From the IMG/VR virus record IMGVR_UViG_3300010354_000001, positions 32,001 through 96,000 of that record: a stretch of 64,000 bases of DNA, one strand, 5' to 3'. The DNA comes from a virus. A model generated the notes under the pieces. The model did no database searches. It was not told the DNA's origin and was given only the letters and a program-made list of their open reading frames with translations. Shown here in pieces: positions 7,358 through 56,338 of the stretch. The position numbers were made by a program, and so were the translations under genes. Position 1 is the stretch's first letter. Each line of letters starts with the position of its first letter.

Positions 7358-7914
7358 TGGAAAATGTAGTGGAAGAGATTGCCTATCGTTTGTTAGAGTC
7401 TTATAAAATCAAGAAGCCAATAGTAAACCCTTTTGATTTAGCTAACAAAAATGGACTCAAAATAATTTATTTTAGCCCGAGTAAGGAAGAGTTCAAGGAC
7501 GTATCTGGTGCGTTAGATAAGGCGAAGAAAACTATATTTATCAACAAGGAAGAACCAGCGGAAAGGCAATTGTTTACAGCCGCTCACGAATTAGGACATT
7601 ATCTGTTAGGGTACAAGACGGAAGATGTCTTGTATAGGTTAGATAGCTTTTCTAATAATGATGATAAACAAGAGAGGGAGGCTAATTTTTTTGCTGCATG
7701 TTTATTAATACCTGAATACATGTTAGATGATGTTTGCAGGGAATACCAGTTTAGGCTACGTGGAGATGAGGTAAAATTATCAAAAATATTTGGGGTCAGT
7801 CTAAGTTTTATGACGTACAGGCTTAAGCATTTACTTAGGTCTAAGATAAGAAACACTTACCTAGAAGAAGAAATTCAAGAAGGCAATCCTTTTGATGACG
7901 AATTTAAGTGTTAG
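7357..7914 (+). CDS. ImmA/IrrE-family metallopeptidase
   Basis: FTAAHELGH and EREANFFAACLLIP. Confidence 0.88.
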   Translation: MENVVEEIAYRLLESYKIKKPIVNPFDLANKNGLKIIYFSPSKEEFKDVSGALDKAKKTIFINKEEPAERQLFTAAHELGHYLLGYKTEDVLYRLDSFSNNDDKQEREANFFAACLLIPEYMLDDVCREYQFRLRGDEVKLSKIFGVSLSFMTYRLKHLLRSKIRNTYLEEEIQEGNPFDDEFKC

Positions 7915-8308
7915 TAAGGATAAAGAGATAATCAGTCTCTTAGAGACAGAAATTGATGCACCAAACTTAGCACAAGAGGAAGATTCCTCGCAATTAAGGG
8001 AATTAGAAGCAGCAGCAGAAGCAGCAAGGGCACAGAGACAATTAGAAATAAAAGAAAAAGCTGATATTCTCGGAATGCGGCAAACTTGGAGTAACTATAT
8101 TTTGTTAGCTATATGCTTATTGACTTGTGCAAATTTATTGTTCTGTTTAAGTGCTATTTTTTACCATAATCACAACTTGTACCATGTGCAATATAGCGAT
8201 AGCGTATTAATAACTCTACTTACTAGTGGTGCGTGTGAAATGTTTGGGCTAGCTTTTATAGTTGCTCGTTTCTTGTTCTCGTCCACTGGCGATAAAACTA
8301 CAACATGA
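7892..8308 (+). CDS. two-TM membrane protein coupled to the ImmA/IrrE gene
   Basis: Two hydrophobic segments; overlaps upstream stop. Confidence 0.6.
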   Translation: MMTNLSVSKDKEIISLLETEIDAPNLAQEEDSSQLRELEAAAEAARAQRQLEIKEKADILGMRQTWSNYILLAICLLTCANLLFCLSAIFYHNHNLYHVQYSDSVLITLLTSGACEMFGLAFIVARFLFSSTGDKTTT

Positions 8309-8434
8309 GTTCACGCTTAAAGGGATGATTCCGAATGAGTTTGCTTTTAGATGGAATAATAGGGGGATTGAAGATATGTTTGGGTTAATTGTTAGAAGAG
8401 GAGTTTTAGTTTAGTAGGCTAAACTAGAGTTAAT

Positions 8435-9559
8435 ATGGCAAACAAATTATTGCATAAAGCAAAGAAATCAAAAAGTGATGAATTTTACACGCAATATATT
8501 GACATTCAAAAAGAAGTTGAAGCCTATCTAGAGTATAACCCTGACACATTCAGAGATAAAGTAGTTTACTGTAACTGTGACGACCCGTTTGAAAGTAATT
8601 TTTTTCGTTATTTCATATTGAACTTTGAACGAATTGGGTTAAAACGGCTCATTACAACAAGTTATAGACCCTCACCTGTTGCTAATACTCAATTAAGATT
8701 GTTTGGTGACGATGACACTGTCAAACAAAAAAAAGGTCGCCCTAAAATAACAGCCAATAAATTTATTATAAACTCAATTGGCGACATAGATGATGACGGT
8801 GAGTTCAGCCTAAAAGATGTTGCGTTACAACTAAAACAAAACAAGAAGAACGAATGGACACTTTTGGATAGTGACGGTGATTTTCGCAGTGCAGAATCTA
8901 TTGAGTTATTGAAACAATCCGACTTTGTAGTAACCAATCCACCATTTAGTCTTTTCCGAGAATTTGTAAAGCAGCTTGTTGATTACGACAAGAAATTCTT
9001 AATCATTGGAAATATTAACGCTATTACTTATAAGGAAGTTTTTCCCTTAATTAGAGAGAATAAAATATGGTTAGGTACGGGTATGGGGCGATGGATTTCT
9101 GGGTTTATTGTTCCAGAATCGTATGAATTATATGGTACTGAGGCACGAATTGATGAAGATGGTAATAGAATAGTGGCGACAAATAATTGCCTTTGGCTTA
9201 CAAATTTAGACCACGGTAAAAGACACCAACCGCTACCCTTAATGACAATGGCTGACAATATTAAATTCAGCTCACACAAGGATGTGAAGGGGAAGAAATA
9301 TGAAAGATATGACAATTACAATGCAATTGAAATTCCATACACTGACGCTATTCCAAGTGATTATGATGGCATAATGGGTGTGCCAATTACATTTTTGGAT
9401 AAATACTCGCCTGATCAATTTGAAATAATTGGTATGGCAGAAGATAATGGCCGCGGTTATTCTGGAGGTGTAATGATTGACCCCAAAGGTAATTCACATG
9501 CTACTTTACCAAATGGGAAGCACATGTATAAAAGAATATTTATTAGGCATAAAAAATAA
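8435..9559 (+). CDS. adenine methyltransferase, M.EcoRI-like family (orphan)
   Basis: KSDEFYT, VYCNCDDP, GDFRS, VVTNPPFSLFRE, MGVPITFLDKY. Confidence 0.88.
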   Translation: MANKLLHKAKKSKSDEFYTQYIDIQKEVEAYLEYNPDTFRDKVVYCNCDDPFESNFFRYFILNFERIGLKRLITTSYRPSPVANTQLRLFGDDDTVKQKKGRPKITANKFIINSIGDIDDDGEFSLKDVALQLKQNKKNEWTLLDSDGDFRSAESIELLKQSDFVVTNPPFSLFREFVKQLVDYDKKFLIIGNINAITYKEVFPLIRENKIWLGTGMGRWISGFIVPESYELYGTEARIDEDGNRIVATNNCLWLTNLDHGKRHQPLPLMTMADNIKFSSHKDVKGKKYERYDNYNAIEIPYTDAIPSDYDGIMGVPITFLDKYSPDQFEIIGMAEDNGRGYSGGVMIDPKGNSHATLPNGKHMYKRIFIRHKK

Positions 9560-29318: not shown

Positions 29319-29432
29319 CGGACTTGACTCTCAGCTTCGCTGAGGGAGATTATCGGCTTCACAGAGTCTGCTTTTACTCTCGTATGAGTAAGTAGTCTTA
29401 TTAACTCTCCACCTACGCCCATCCTAGGCGTA
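29319..29432 (-). ncRNA. orphan TnpB omega-RNA-like scaffold (copy 3)
   Basis: Near-identical to 55403-55492 and homologous to tnpB 3' end; terminal hairpin replaced by CTCAGC-GAA-GCTGAG; ends AAGTCCG. Confidence 0.7.
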
Positions 29433-30884
29433 TGTTTTAATTATAGCATACTTTTCATCATTTACTATATTTTCCACTAAAGATTCTGGATTTGCATCAG
29501 CTTCTAATACATATTTCATCACTGAAGGTGAGTACCCAGAAATTAACTGAACATTTTTATCTTTACTTAAAGCTGGCATGTTTCCTGTACGCCCACTGAC
29601 GTTCCAAAATACTACTTTAGGCATAGCATAGCCTGAAGCTCTAAATAAATCTTGTATATGCTCAAAGTTGGTTTTGCTTTTATTGGCTACATCAAACTCC
29701 ATATCAGAGATTATTAATATGCTTTTAGGCATTTCTGATTCTGGAGAATTATGCTGTTTAGCTCTTCCTAGTAATAACTCAAATACTTTAGTTAAATCAG
29801 TGTTATAGCTCCAATTAGCCTTTCTTAAAGCATCTACTTTTTCAAGTAAAGTGCCTTCAGGAATAGTAAAGAAAGCTGGATTCTCACTGAAAGTGCAAAC
29901 TAAGTTTTTAAAGTCTCCTACTAATCTTTCTGCTAAATAGATACCTAGTCCGACAGATACATCCATAGGTTCTCCTGCCATAGACCCAGATACATCACAC
30001 ACTACCAGAGTAGATGATGCTTTTCCTTGTAGATAGTCTGGTAAAGCTTTCCATTGGGCATCTGCGGTTGCAGGATCTTTATCAGTAGCTTTGACTAGAT
30101 CAGAAGGAAATAATACTGAGCTATTTATCTTCTTTTCTCCTTTAACTACTGCTTCTAAATACCCGTTAAACCTCTCCTCTGAGTGTTTTCTGAACGCTTT
30201 AGAGTAGTTGCTCATGGCCTTGGAAGGAACATGCTCGTATTTTATCTCATCCCACTTCTTAGCTGACATTTGAGTCTCTACTACTTTAGTATTAGCTGCT
30301 AGTTTCTGTCTGTAAGCTTTCGGCCCGCCTGCCTGCTCTGTTAGTTTCTTTCTTAGCTTAGGATATTTTTTAGACTTCTCCCTAGGTAGCCACTTGAAAA
30401 GTAAACTGTCAGTTGCTTCGCCAAAAGCTTCTTGTATATGTTTAAGAACTACAAGCTTAGTAAAATAGTGAGTAGTATCGCTCTCGTAGAGATCGAATAG
30501 ATAATCCCATCTTGTGAAAGAGACTATGTTGTCTACGTTATTGATAATCGCACTATCGCTGACTACTCTTACTATATCCTCTGAGTTTATCTGGCATTGG
30601 GTAGTTTCGTGTAAAGTAGCTAAGTAGTTAAGGGCCAGTTTAAAAAATCTTCTCTCTCCTAGTCCTCCCCGAATAGCTCCTGCCCAAAAAATTAACTTAA
30701 TAGTCTTTTCTCTGTCGAATTTGTAAGCTTTATCTATTAATGCAGTTATATCTACATCGCTCATCTTCCTAGAGGCTCCTGCTAGGAACACAAAATCCAC
30801 TAAGGGGTTGAAAGATGATTTATTTGTTACAGCACCATTGTCTGTGTGGCCTGTGTTAGTTAAATTTTTGATTAGATTATTCAT
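29424..30884 (-). CDS. Ro60/TROVE-like VWA protein (DUF2828 type)
   Basis: TDNGA, IRGGLGER, RWD, KWLPRE, VPSKAM, MIDAS CDVSGSM, ISDMEFD, VFWNV, SGYSP. Confidence 0.85.
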   Translation of the reverse strand: MNNLIKNLTNTGHTDNGAVTNKSSFNPLVDFVFLAGASRKMSDVDITALIDKAYKFDREKTIKLIFWAGAIRGGLGERRFFKLALNYLATLHETTQCQINSEDIVRVVSDSAIINNVDNIVSFTRWDYLFDLYESDTTHYFTKLVVLKHIQEAFGEATDSLLFKWLPREKSKKYPKLRKKLTEQAGGPKAYRQKLAANTKVVETQMSAKKWDEIKYEHVPSKAMSNYSKAFRKHSEERFNGYLEAVVKGEKKINSSVLFPSDLVKATDKDPATADAQWKALPDYLQGKASSTLVVCDVSGSMAGEPMDVSVGLGIYLAERLVGDFKNLVCTFSENPAFFTIPEGTLLEKVDALRKANWSYNTDLTKVFELLLGRAKQHNSPESEMPKSILIISDMEFDVANKSKTNFEHIQDLFRASGYAMPKVVFWNVSGRTGNMPALSKDKNVQLISGYSPSVMKYVLEADANPESLVENIVNDEKYAIIKTYA

Positions 30885-37109: not shown

Positions 37110-37138
37110 GTCGTTAATTATAGCATAAAAAGTACAAT

Positions 37139-47535: not shown

Positions 47536-47546
47536 ACTAATTAGTC

Positions 47547-47665
47547 CGGACTTGTCCCATTAACATACGTTAAGGGAGATTATCGGCTTCACCGAGTCTG
47601 CTTTAATCACCTCGTATAGTGAGTCTAGTCTTACTAACTCTCCACCAGCGGCCATCCTAGCCGCT
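47547..47665 (-). ncRNA. omega-RNA-like scaffold overlapping tnpB 3' end (copy 1)
   Basis: Position at the tnpB right end; hairpins covary with copies 2 and 3. Confidence 0.7.
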
Positions 47666-48735
47666 TCCTTTGCTATATTGATAGAAGCGTTCCTGTCTCT
47701 GTGGTGCTTTGCACCACATTTACAAGTCCACTCCCTATCAGACAGTTGCAAACTATCATTTATTCTACCACACTCTGAACAAGTTTTACTAGAAGGAAAA
47801 AATCTATTTACCTCTATAACTTGTTTGCCAACAGAGTTGGCTTTATAATTTAAGTAGTTAAGGAATAATCCCCAACCAGAGTCAGCTATTGACATAGCTA
47901 ACTTATGGTTTTTAACTAAACCTTTAATATGTAAATCCTCTACAGCGAATGCTTGATTCTCGCATTCGCTTACTAGAGAATTAGAAACTTTATGAGAGAA
48001 ATCTTTTCTCTTATTAGCTATTCTCTCGTGTAGCTTTGCTACACGGATTCTAGCTTGATTTCTCTTTTTAGAACCTTTCTGCTTTCTGCAAAAATCTCTT
48101 TGAGATTTTTTTAGTTTACTTAAATTTTCTCTTAAAAACTTATTAGGTTTAACTCTAACTCCGTTAGAAGTAATTAAAAAATCTTTTAGACCAAGGTCTA
48201 AACCTGTTATACCTTCTTTATGTTTAATATTAGATAAATCTAAATCTTCTACTTCAAATAAACAAACTGCATAGTAACTACCAGAAGCAGATTTTTTAAC
48301 TGTTACTTTCTTTAACTTGCCTTCAGGCAAGTCACTTCCTCTAAACTTAACTAAGCCTAGCTTCGGTAGTTTTATTTTATTACCAATTAAGGAAGTTCCT
48401 TGTATTATGGAGTAAGATTTTTTGCAATACTTGTTTTTAAATCTAGGAAATTTACCTACCCCTTTAAAAAATCTATTATAAGCTTCTGCTAGATTACCGC
48501 AGGTAATCTGTAATTGTGCTGCTGAAGCAGCACTAAGCCATGTATATTGCTTTTTAAGTTTAGGTAAAAGGTTATTCATATCATAATTAGATAAAGATTT
48601 ACCTGTTCTTAAATATTTCTTTTTACAAATCTCTAACATTTTATTATAGATAAATCTAGAACAACCAAACTCAATCTCAAGTTGTTTAACTTGTGATTGG
48701 TTTGGGTAAAGTTTAATTTCTCTTGATCTAAACAT
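47560..48735 (-). CDS. tnpB: TnpB RNA-guided endonuclease
   Basis: N-terminal HTH; RuvC GLDLG, VEDL, RDRNA intact; Zn finger CSEC...CKCG. Confidence 0.93.
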   Translation of the reverse strand: MFRSREIKLYPNQSQVKQLEIEFGCSRFIYNKMLEICKKKYLRTGKSLSNYDMNNLLPKLKKQYTWLSAASAAQLQITCGNLAEAYNRFFKGVGKFPRFKNKYCKKSYSIIQGTSLIGNKIKLPKLGLVKFRGSDLPEGKLKKVTVKKSASGSYYAVCLFEVEDLDLSNIKHKEGITGLDLGLKDFLITSNGVRVKPNKFLRENLSKLKKSQRDFCRKQKGSKKRNQARIRVAKLHERIANKRKDFSHKVSNSLVSECENQAFAVEDLHIKGLVKNHKLAMSIADSGWGLFLNYLNYKANSVGKQVIEVNRFFPSSKTCSECGRINDSLQLSDREWTCKCGAKHHRDRNASINIAKEAARMAAGGELVRLDSLYEVIKADSVKPIISLNVC

Positions 48736-48775
48736 TATAATTGGAGGTGTCTCCTGATTATATTATACTACGTTC

Positions 48776-49219
48776 TTAACGTATGTTAATGGGATAAGTG
48801 TGGATTCTAATAAATCTATCCATGTGCCTAAAAGGAAATTTATTGGCTATATACATGGTTTCCTGCAGTTCTACATTATCTATATAGTAGTGGGGTTTCT
48901 CTGGATCAAACTTAATCAACCCTGACTTTATAAGTCCTGAGATTATTTTATCTAACTGTTTGTGTAGATCTGCGTGAATCTCCCTATCAAGTATTATTAA
49001 GTTTCCGTTAAACCCATTCTCTCGATCAAAGTCTATATGGTGTATATCAAATCTGTTGTCGGGGTAAAATCCGTGTTTAGCTTCAAATTCATCAGCTAAA
49101 GCATAGCGATCATCATAATTACGCTTCCTGCTTGCAGTCCATCTTTGGATGTATTTAGGATAAAAAAGTCTCTTCTTCTTTTTCAAGCGTACTTTAATTG
49201 TATCCTCAGAGGTCAGCAT
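48776..49219 (-). CDS. HNH endonuclease-like protein; C-terminus supplied by the element TIR; start uncertain
   Basis: IHHIDFDRENG..NL...H...H; ends TYPINIR in the TIR. Confidence 0.7.
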   Translation of the reverse strand: MLTSEDTIKVRLKKKKRLFYPKYIQRWTASRKRNYDDRYALADEFEAKHGFYPDNRFDIHHIDFDRENGFNGNLIILDREIHADLHKQLDKIISGLIKSGLIKFDPEKPHYYIDNVELQETMYIANKFPFRHMDRFIRIHTYPINIR

Positions 49220-54773: not shown

Positions 54774-55190
54774 TTATATCTTTTCCCTTTCTGTTTCAAG
54801 TATAGCACCTGCCTTGGCTATATTTCTTGGATATTCTCTACCTCGCATAAAAAATTTACTATCTGTTTTAGTAGGCTTGTAGTATTTCTCTATAGTAGCT
54901 GTTGCAAGCTCTATATCAAAATCTTTGCAGCTAAAAATATCTACTGTTATAAATCCATTTTGGTCTGGAAAAGTGTGTACTGCTATGTGACTTTCTGCGA
55001 TTAGCACTACTCCACTAACGCCCCACTCTTCTTCTACTTTGCCTTTATACTTAAAAACATAAGGAGGCATTATCTTTGTCATCCCTATCTCATCAGGCAA
55101 CTTATCCAGTATATCTGCGGTTATCTCTACTGATCTTGTAGCTTGCTCATCGCAGCCGTAGAGTTCTAATACTAAGTGTGGTCCAAACAT
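54774..55190 (-). CDS. speD: S-adenosylmethionine decarboxylase proenzyme
   Basis: GPHL, GVSGVVLIAE|SHIAVHTFP, DIFSC. Confidence 0.9.
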   Translation of the reverse strand: MFGPHLVLELYGCDEQATRSVEITADILDKLPDEIGMTKIMPPYVFKYKGKVEEEWGVSGVVLIAESHIAVHTFPDQNGFITVDIFSCKDFDIELATATIEKYYKPTKTDSKFFMRGREYPRNIAKAGAILETEREKI

Positions 55191-55323
55191 TTGTATAAAT
55201 ATTGTTACTTAACTTTTGTGTTTTAAATATTAAGATTTTTGGTAAAATTTTAAGGCACGGACATAAAAGGAATAAATGGAAAACAATGAAAACTGCCGTG
55301 CCTATACTCCTATTATAGCATAC

Positions 55324-55518
55324 CAAACTTATCCCATTAACATACGTTAAGAATGTAGTATAATATAACTAGGCATGATAACCAAGTGTCTATTACGAAA
55401 AATACGCCCAGGATGGGCGTAGGTGGAGAGTTAATAAGACTACTTACTCATACGAGAGCAAAAGCAGACTCTGTGAAGCCGATAATCTCCCTTAACGTAT
55501 GTTAATGGGATAAGTCCG
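55324..55518 (+). mobile_element. MITE derivative of the tnpB element retaining promoter and omega-RNA-like scaffold
   Basis: 24-bp perfect TIR core (55327-55350 / 55492-55515); 8-bp direct repeat TAGCATAC at 55316-55323 and 55519-55526. Confidence 0.88.
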
Positions 55519-55824
55519 TAGCATACTACCGAAAGATCTACTACCATAATAAAAAGGTGAATAATGAACTTGATAATCTGTCTTTGGGTCTTGCATTAAC
55601 TCCACATGACATAAAGAACCAAGACAGGGATAATAATCTCGTGGAAAATACGTTATTATGTTATTTTCTAGATCCTCTCTATCTAAGATAAACCATTGCA
55701 CTTCACATTTGTCATCATAATTATAGTAAACCGCATAGTCAGTAGTCTCTACGGACTTACATGATGCATAACCTAACTCTTCCAATACACTCTTACAATG
55801 CTCGAACTTATCTATTGGATTCAT
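55492..55824 (-). CDS. hypothetical protein, C-terminus extended by the MITE
   Basis: Ends RTYPINIR in the TIR. Confidence 0.6.
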   Translation of the reverse strand: MNPIDKFEHCKSVLEELGYASCKSVETTDYAVYYNYDDKCEVQWFILDREDLENNIITYFPRDYYPCLGSLCHVELMQDPKTDYQVHYSPFYYGSRSFGSMLRTYPINIR

Positions 55825-56338
55825 TGATTAACTGCTCATGTATTGGCTTTGAGAAGTCTAATTTCTTAGTCTTCCCTTTCTTGTATTCAGAGATTCCCCT
55901 TTCTATAACAGACTCTAAGTCATCCCCAAATAATATCTCTGCTATCTTTGGTTTAAAGTAATCTTTACCTTTACCGACTTTCCCATCTTCCCTAAACACA
56001 GGTTTACCGTCTTCTAGCTTAGATAGATTAGAGTCTTTAACTTCCTCGAAACATCTTTCTAGTATCTCTACAGCTTTATCTCCATAGCCAGCATCTTCTA
56101 ATACTTGCAGACCTATATTAAAAGCTACAAAGGCTACATCACATACACCATCTATGGTCTCTACTAAACATTCTTTGTTGTAGGCAGTGTCTACCACAGA
56201 CCAAAGATAAGAATTAAGCCCTTGGCTCAGTTCTCCTACTTCCTCATCTAAATACCTTAGATGATCTTGTGCTGATTTTAAAGGATCTGGATTACCTACT
56301 CTTACTATCTTATCTATAAACTGTTTAATTTTTTTCAT
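55808..56338 (-). CDS. MazG-like/PRA-PH nucleotide pyrophosphohydrolase
   Basis: EEVGEL, DGVCD, SNLSK..DGKPVFREDGKV.K. Confidence 0.82.
   Translation of the reverse strand: MKKIKQFIDKIVRVGNPDPLKSAQDHLRYLDEEVGELSQGLNSYLWSVVDTAYNKECLVETIDGVCDVAFVAFNIGLQVLEDAGYGDKAVEILERCFEEVKDSNLSKLEDGKPVFREDGKVGKGKDYFKPKIAEILFGDDLESVIERGISEYKKGKTKKLDFSKPIHEQLINESNR

Follow-up and report, generated by a model that had tools for sequence, protein, structure and literature searches.

The locus considered here raises a simple question: what does a 195-bp insertion without any open reading frame (ORF) of its own do in a phage that also encodes the nuclease TnpB, and is it an inert transposon fragment or a cassette that supplies this nuclease with a guide RNA? 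The insertion occupies positions 55324-55518 of a 64,000-nt stretch of DNA (the window), which represents bases 32001-96000 of the 113,974-bp IMG/VR record IMGVR_UViG_3300010354_000001, a freshwater, virulent-looking phage of 114 kb with direct terminal repeats and 36% G+C. Our analysis indicates that the insertion is almost certainly a miniature inverted-repeat transposable element (MITE) of the IS1595 type, and that it is recent and polymorphic. We would give an even chance to the interpretation that it is a recent non-autonomous deletion derivative which makes a trans guide for TnpB against relatives that do not carry the MITE.

An initial annotation, made from the letters of the window alone, had described a 195-bp MITE with target site duplications (TSDs), terminal inverted repeats (TIRs), a TATAAT box (55359-55364) and a guide RNA (omegaRNA) scaffold, and all of these were recovered where it had placed them. 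The parts of the element are as follows, X3 being one of the freshwater sequencing runs discussed below.

55316-55323, plus strand: left TSD copy, 8 bp, TAGCATAC, read in the sequence and present as a single copy in the empty allele of run X3
55324-55351, plus strand: left TIR, 28 nt, tip CAAACTTAT, with a 25-nt core exactly complementary to 55491-55515
55337-55364, plus strand: sigma-70-type promoter TTAACA-16 nt-TATAAT, agreeing with 11/12 consensus positions
55371-55391, plus strand: predicted 5' hairpin of the transcript, 21 nt, with an AGGCAT/GTGTCT stem
55403-55518, plus strand: omegaRNA scaffold, 116 nt, comprising stem 1, core and terminal hairpin and ending in ...AAGTCCG, as defined by a six-copy alignment
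55491-55518, plus strand: right TIR, 28 nt, which is also the last hairpin and the 3' end of the scaffold
55519-55538, plus strand: right TSD copy TAGCATAC (55519-55526) and adjoining flank, together the predicted 16-20-nt guide

The interior between the 28-nt ends is 139 nt. The ends are complementary at 25/28 positions, with the mismatch confined to the first 2-4 bases of the tip (CAAA vs CGGA); read as its reverse complement, the right tip is CGGACTTAT. The 25-nt end core occurs four times in the window, twice at the MITE and once each at 47550-47574 and 48775-48799, compared with zero occurrences in shuffles of the window.

Insertion polymorphism and natural empty alleles

Public assemblies were compared with positions 54800-56000 of the window; contigs of this kind cannot reveal RNA ends or rare variants. 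Runs X18-X22, in which the sequence words had small shares, do not enter the evidence. In X3, a 574-nt contig covers 54830-55315 and then resumes at 55519-55605. It therefore omits exactly 203 bp (55316-55518), which is the MITE plus one repeat, the eight repeated letters fitting either side. The resulting empty site reads ...CTATTA followed by TAGCATAC and TACCGAAAG..., its right side being identical to the window, and the junction can equally be written as ...CTATTA with TAGCATACTACCGAAAGATC or, from the start of the guide, as CTATTA with TAGCATACTACC.... A 1,373-nt contig from a further run, X4, represents a more diverged empty allele whose flank was matched over 15 bases past the junction and then differs. 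The exact skip in X3 and the X4 allele together show the insertion and its 8-bp target duplication directly, beyond inference. The initial annotation had argued for a true insertion on the grounds that removal of the element restores a neighbouring ORF ending in GSML-stop, and had proposed a search for empty alleles in related phages. The precise (X3) and diverged (X4) alleles now bear out the insertion, and deletion of the MITE with one repeat does give the 110-aa ORF on the minus strand a GSML-stop end. With the MITE in place, this ORF ends in ...GSMLRTYPINIR-stop, eight extra codons running into the right end of the element.

Run X3 also contains a second MITE copy at another place, with 6 differences in 191 nt and a left tip CGGC, bordered on both sides by the 8-bp duplication AAAGTACA. 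Its target is found uninterrupted in the window:

37129-37136, plus strand: empty target AAAGTACA of the second X3 insertion, where the flanks of the X3 copy match exactly over 16 nt

In the phage, the 55.3-kb site is thus occupied and the 37.1-kb site empty, while X3 has contigs of near-equal depth of which one is empty at the 55.3-kb site and one occupied at the 37.1-kb site, their co-membership in one genome not being established. In X4, the summed contig depth over the scaffold (55415-55496) is 5-7x that of the flanks; this suggests many scaffold-bearing loci or lineages in the sample and is not a copy number.

Transposon ends of the IS1595 type

The two independent MITE insertions with 8-bp duplications raise the issue of which transposase made them. 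The phage encodes no Y1, serine or IS1595 transposase, and an IS1595 transposase was also absent from 31 related viral records; mobilisation must therefore be in trans, presumably by a host copy. We searched 401 Bacteroidota genomes for PF12762 (DDE_Tnp_IS1595) and obtained matches in 64. The ends of 34 PF12762 loci were examined and four insertion sequences (ISs) had clean ends. These are listed below with a tnpB-only element from one of the same genomes.

L178: 1,342 bp, 311-aa transposase, tips GGGGCTTAT and GGGGATTAT, duplication GAATAAAT
L160: tips GGGACTTAC and GGGCATTAT, duplication GCAATCAC
L155: tip different from those of L178 and L160, duplication AACAACAA
L157: tip like that of L155, with no clear 8-bp duplication at the script-called boundaries
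L190:1386-2702, in Bacteroidota genome G434, which also holds L178: 1,317-bp tnpB-only element, ends GGGGCTTATAGC and GGGACTTATATC, duplication AAACTGGC

Three of the four transposase-encoding ISs (L155, L160 and L178) thus have 8-bp duplications, and the MITE tip CGGACTTAT resembles the tips GGGACTTAC of L160 and GGGGCTTAT of L178. The inverted ends of L190 match those of the transposase-bearing L178, and its right tip GGGACTTAT is identical to the MITE tip at 8/9 positions. The TnpB of L190 is distant, being 26% identical to the phage TnpB, and L190 is an independent bacterial example of a TnpB on IS1595-type ends. Among the loci examined, no transposase was found whose ends exactly match those of the MITE. 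On the basis of the similar tips and the 8-bp footprint, we classify the MITE ends as IS1595-type. In ISfinder, IS1595 subgroups have 8-bp duplications and ends starting with CGG or GG.

Two other origins of the footprint were considered. A palindrome-associated transposable element (PATE) of the IS200/IS605 type, which would have asymmetric subterminal hairpin ends and a Y1 TnpA and insert 3' of a fixed tetra- or pentanucleotide, was ruled out by the inverted ends, the 8-bp duplication, the lack of a Y1 or serine transposase and the lack of a common 5' motif. A duplication produced by a staggered TnpB cut was set aside, given that IS1595-type ISs leave the same 8-bp footprint and have similar ends. 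The initial annotation had overlooked that ends and 8-bp duplication alike belong to a DDE transposon (IS1595-type) and not to IS200/IS605.

Origin from a tnpB element

The remaining two copies of the 25-nt end core belong to an element that carries tnpB:

47544-48802, minus strand: tnpB-only element, 1,259 bp, sharing these ends and probably supplying TnpB in trans

The MITE shares the first 45 nt of this element (left end and promoter) at 96% identity, its left TIR being likewise 96% identical to the left end at 48758-48802, and the last 113 nt (3' end of tnpB and right end) at 87% identity. It is therefore an internal-deletion derivative of an element of this 1,259-bp type. The genome carries two tnpB genes; the second tnpB element has 70% DNA identity and its own perfect 23-bp inverted ends. 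In addition, a sister mini-element outside the window is 84% identical to the MITE, and the window contains a copy of the scaffold alone:

29319-29437, minus strand: scaffold-only copy with no left end and its own GTATGCTATAAT promoter, 97% identical to the MITE core

All six scaffold copies end in TCCG and diverge immediately afterwards, which is the behaviour expected of an omegaRNA scaffold with a flank-derived guide.

The full-length tnpB elements behave differently at their insertion sites. All three of them (47544-48802; L046:3945-5187, on an IMG/VR contig; and genome positions 7422-8677, outside the window) have no target duplication, in contrast to both mini-element insertions with their perfect 8-bp duplications. 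Their sites are also polymorphic: the 47.5-kb element is absent from the relatives L064 and L065, and the L046 element is absent from this phage at genome position ~21855. At the empty alleles of these elements, the 10-20 bases that the guide of the element would match have been scrambled or have acquired an indel; identity in the flanks is 83-88%. These features could reflect alleles that escaped cutting, the footprint of an excision, or insertion by another route.

The distribution of the system appears narrow. No close relative of the MITE DNA was found among GenBank phages. Scans for the exact patterns of the end sequence and two scaffold motifs recovered nothing related in IMG/VR except contig L046, and gave two chance matches only in the JGI metagenomes. 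Inverted ends sought around 49 more distant TnpB relatives (35 cyanobacterial or other bacterial loci and 14 viral ones) were in no case convincing, so that this chassis is restricted to a close phage clade among those sampled. A solitary end-like sequence with 3 mismatches/25 lies ~20 nt upstream of a gene start in an IMG/VR relative (L150:1501-1528 in G003), with no scaffold or tnpB near it; this could be a left end, either domesticated or a relic, that now serves as a promoter.

A probable TnpB partner in trans

The initial annotation had assumed a TnpB that could act in trans, and the gene content of the window is compatible with this: an apparently active TnpB is encoded 6.5 kb away. It is a protein of 391 aa (47560-48735), the product of the sole gene of the 1,259-bp element, with the Pfam domains HTH_OrfB_IS605, OrfB_IS605 and Cas12f1-like_TNB. 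It aligns end to end with the TnpB of ISDra2 (E 2e-69). In an alignment of 19 relatives, the RuvC residues D180, E266 and D347 and four zinc-finger cysteines are invariant, and dN/dS is 0.21 relative to a 90%-identical copy on contig L046. To judge from these sequence comparisons, the protein is under purifying selection with its catalytic residues intact. The residues that contact the transposon-associated motif (TAM) in ISDra2 TnpB, namely Y52, S56, K76, F77, Q80, T123 and N124, correspond here to N, N, A, A, Q, I and Q. Since six of the seven are changed and only Q80 is kept, TTGAT is not expected to be recognised, and the TAM of the phage TnpB probably differs from that of ISDra2. TnpB genes are frequent in GenBank phages (305 records), and the best match there is 42.5% identical to the phage protein; close relatives (P0001-P0033) occur on many Logan and ENA contigs.

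Promoter and omegaRNA scaffold

The initial annotation had held that the MITE keeps only a promoter and a guide RNA scaffold, and this is borne out, the scaffold being complete. The -35-like TTAACA (55337-55342) lies within the left end and is separated by a 16-nt spacer from TATAAT. The full element has this same promoter ahead of tnpB, and the sequence is conserved there as well as in the sister mini-element and in L046. The transcript presumably starts near the 5' hairpin. In the sister mini-element the hairpin at this place has an AGGTGC/GCACCT stem, in which two pairs are changed on both sides and the stem is kept.

The scaffold, which is 87% identical to the 3' end of tnpB, shows a comparable pattern. 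In the six-copy alignment, five pairs of stem 1 have compensatory changes, and the central and terminal hairpins persist although their sequences vary from copy to copy. Between the MITE and its sister, the core is 93% identical and the ends, promoter region and terminal hairpin are 64-75% identical; this distribution is consistent with selection acting on the RNA, and equally with gene conversion among the copies. A search of the window against Rfam returned no family at threshold except tRNAs. A weak likeness to RAGATH-18 (the guide RNA of IS607 TnpB) scored 19.4 bits (E 0.3) at 55420-55484, below the gathering threshold of 44.9 bits. One RNA library contained a single 151-nt contig identical (100%) to 55396-55546, which spans the scaffold and 28 nt of flank; the contig gives no information on strand or transcript ends, and carried-over DNA could be its source. 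We regard it as somewhat probable that the RNA is made and bound by TnpB.

Guide, target and proposed mechanism

If the MITE does produce a guide, its own mode of insertion dictates where that guide has to begin. Where an element makes a TSD, the guide must start at the right end and cover the 8 bases of the repeat, since any other arrangement would leave occupied and empty alleles with identical targets. Because the guide then begins with the duplicated bases, self and non-self can be told apart only at the position of the TAM, which is GTCCG in the occupied allele and ...TATTA in the empty allele. The trans-guide model put forward in the initial annotation is thus the only self-consistent targeting scheme. 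The flank-derived guide that it had named (TAGCATACTACCGAAAG...) has a perfect natural target in the empty allele of related wild phages in X3, where the guide bases are identical, and has no other match in the phage at <=2 mismatches. Judged from the sequences, a trans guide directed against the empty allele would be coherent.

We propose the following mechanism. An IS1595-family DDE transposase, presumably host-supplied, would recognise the 28-nt inverted ends and, through an 8-bp staggered cut, insert the element into the upstream edge of a phage promoter. What is left of the parent element is just the equipment for producing a guide RNA: the left-end promoter would fire rightwards through the 5' hairpin and the 116-nt omegaRNA scaffold, and transcription would exit the right end, such that the first 16-20 bases of the flank (TAGCATAC plus TACCGAAAGATC) would become the guide. 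TnpB from the 47.5-48.8-kb element would load this RNA. Matching DNA would be preceded by the transposon end GTCCG if occupied and by ...TATTA if empty, and with a TAM that accepts TATTA and not GTCCG, only relatives without the MITE would be cut during co-infection. The break would be repaired from the MITE-bearing genome (homing), or the rival would be killed. We infer the steps of transcription, loading, TAM fit, cleavage and homing. That TnpB with the MITE RNA cuts the empty alleles of co-infecting relatives is a tentative proposal, which we would rate somewhat short of probable. A broader version, in which the phage keeps dispersed self-programming guide cassettes, each hop writing a guide against relatives without that insertion so that lineages with different insertions, like this phage and sample X3 with their two differing sites, could cut each other on co-infection, is possible although rather doubtful.

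Several points weigh against this interpretation. We looked for a TAM in the left flanks of all copies together with the ISDra2 contact residues, and these gave no consistent motif. The bases 5' of the duplication are ATTA, CATA and TATA at three left junctions and AAAA at a fourth, poorly resolved one, which is at best a weak hint of 'TA'. The RNA support has neither strand nor end resolution. The scaffolds of the MITE and the resident tnpB are 13% divergent, with a 3-nt indel, which makes their compatibility an assumption, and the C at 55459 creates an A-C mismatch in the central hairpin where sister copies have U. Moreover, the right inverted repeat overlaps the last scaffold hairpin, so that the needs of transposition would by themselves preserve part of the scaffold. 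Finally, a cut-and-paste DDE element needs no nuclease for restoration at the donor site.

Promoter neighbourhood and flanking genes

In minus-strand orientation, the left TSD belongs to the phage promoter motif GTATGCTATAAT, and the insertion leaves this motif undamaged. This motif occurs exactly twice, at the MITE target (55312-55323, minus strand) and upstream of the scaffold-only copy (29440-29451, minus strand), and the sequence TTATGCTATAAT at 37117-37128 (minus strand) adjoins the second MITE site seen in X3. From these positions, each of the two mini-element insertions falls either at an extended -10 promoter of the opposite strand or immediately upstream of one.

Read on the minus strand, stem 1 and the TTTTT behind it (55403-55421) score as an intrinsic terminator for the 110-aa gene, which extends into the element; the sister copies have no T-run. 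Two unrelated ORFs run into element ends on the minus strand, an HNH-like 147-aa ORF into the end at 48776-48802 and the 110-aa ORF into that at 55492-55518, and both finish in TYPINIR-stop, the tail being supplied by the inverted repeat. A search of IMG/VR for relatives of the 110-aa gene found none. Compared with window positions 55239-55250, the related sequence L009:691-877 has an extra ~185 bp with a small ORF between the S-adenosylmethionine decarboxylase gene and a conserved intergenic block, and a different gene takes the place of the 110-aa ORF in L009. These differences mark the intergenic region as a hotspot of variation.

Alternative explanations

The element could instead be an inert selfish relic, a young internal-deletion derivative moved by a host IS1595-type transposase, in which the scaffold is present since the right inverted repeat lies within it and the deletion happened to stop there, and any RNA has no role. 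The identity of the right end with the terminal hairpin DNA, the A-C mismatch of the MITE copy and the fact that no RNA ends are known all agree with such a relic, as does the recent, polymorphic insertion, which has left little time for decay. It accounts less well for the sister mini-element, where promoter, 5' hairpin and complete scaffold are kept, with conservation concentrated in the core and compensatory changes in the stems, or for the third copy, which lost the transposon ends yet gained its own strong promoter. The conservation in the sister and the promoter of the third copy suggest that the RNA, and not mobility, is what selection has acted on, and on balance we consider a relic unlikely. 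The MITE might also persist as a cis-regulatory passenger, through its effects on neighbouring genes: it would terminate transcription of the upstream 110-aa gene, its duplication would restore the GTATGCTATAAT promoter in front of the S-adenosylmethionine decarboxylase gene, and its plus-strand transcript would run antisense to the 110-aa gene at the 3' end. The terminator-like site (55421-55403 as read on the minus strand), the exact GTATGCTATAAT motif at 55323 on the same strand and the convergent orientation of the MITE and the neighbouring genes are in line with this. However, the T-run is found only in the MITE copy, related phages have the empty allele without any replacement element, and conservation of the whole scaffold would be left unexplained, making such a role quite improbable.

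A further variant retains the guide cassette and aims it elsewhere: the RNA would direct cutting of excision footprints at the donor site, or binding without cutting, and the TAM would not be satisfied at naive empty sites. It draws on the lack of a common 5' motif across all copies, on the three full-length tnpB elements without duplications, and on the empty sites of relatives, which are scrambled exactly over the guide-matching bases. A footprint, however, keeps both 8-bp repeats and hence the same guide-matching bases (TAGCATAC plus flank) as the occupied right end, so that self-discrimination would rest only on the TAM position, CATAC at the left repeat vs GTCCG at the right end. The intact catalytic residues, moreover, argue against a binding-only role, and this variant seems to us very unlikely, a little more so even than a cis-regulatory function.

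Comparison with known systems

Guide RNAs that are mobilised without their effector have precedents. Effector-less omegaRNAs acting in trans are already described in PMC10691335, which calls their role unknown, and PATE-like IS605 elements often encode omegaRNAs that need TnpB in trans (Meers et al., bioRxiv 10.1101/2023.03.14.532601). The MITE has in common with these stand-alone omegaRNAs and IS200/IS605 PATEs (Altae-Tran 2021, as summarised in PMC10691335; Meers et al.) that it is protein-less, consists of a right end and scaffold, takes its guide from the flank and relies on a nuclease in trans. It differs in having inverted repeats and an 8-bp duplication, whereas the IS605-type elements have asymmetric hairpin ends, make no duplication and sit beside the TAM; it also carries its own promoter and resides in a phage. 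As a consequence of the duplication, its guide opens with 8 bases of duplicated target, and the TAM has to be located in unrelated flanking DNA. The phage element therefore presents a known idea, protein-less guide elements of IS200/IS605 in bacteria, in a different transposon chassis.

That chassis has parallels as well. Six DDE-associated TnpB branches with inverted ends, plus solo TnpBs in the same ends, were reported by Altae-Tran et al. 2023 (PMC10691335); in its accessible text, branch DDE-6 is assigned to IS630 without any mention of IS1595, and links to ISL2, IS630 and IS1031 are ascribed to the same paper by a 2026 review (PMC13565253). The likeness to these branches, as far as that text describes them, lies in TnpB and omegaRNA within symmetric inverted ends and a DDE transposase in trans; the phage ends are of the IS1595 type and the MITE has lost tnpB altogether. 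With IS1595-family ISs, and with their derivatives that carry passengers or lack a transposase, the MITE has in common the 8-bp duplication and a similar tip, and it differs from them in having no transposase and, as cargo, a promoter and guide RNA scaffold. As for the RNA and its nuclease, ISDra2 TnpB-omegaRNA (PDB 8EXA, 8H1J) offers a full-length TnpB alignment, a scaffold of ~116 nt and a guide immediately after the transposon end. The ISDra2 omegaRNA remains active after deletion of -231 to -117 (PMC10097598), and the 116 nt of the MITE scaffold equal the length of the omegaRNA core sufficient for cleavage in that study. Six of the seven TAM-contact residues and the transposon context of the phage system are different.

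The system bears on TnpB-driven non-restorative homing or rival exclusion between co-infecting phages, on how a TAM-requiring nuclease cooperates with a transposase that makes arbitrary duplications, and on how guide repertoires could grow by transposition of minimal cassettes, a possible step to array-like systems. Should the phage indeed keep dispersed self-programming cassettes, these would amount to a gene drive and a weapon of exclusion between phages that is directed by guide RNAs and derived from a DDE transposon instead of IS605. They would then be the free-living counterpart of a spacer array, acquired through transposition. OMEGA homing into co-infecting phages has been discussed as a theoretical possibility. 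The proposed outcome, cutting of an element-less co-infecting relative followed by copying or exclusion, is the same as for the free-standing homing endonucleases of T-even phages (intronless homing, marker exclusion) and for 'non-restorative transposon homing' (PMC13565253); unlike in the T-even endonucleases, specificity would come from an RNA generated by the insertion itself. Relative to all these systems, the novelty lies in the combination: a phage carries a mini-element of the IS1595 type, pared down to a promoter and omegaRNA, for which empty and alternative-site alleles exist in nature.

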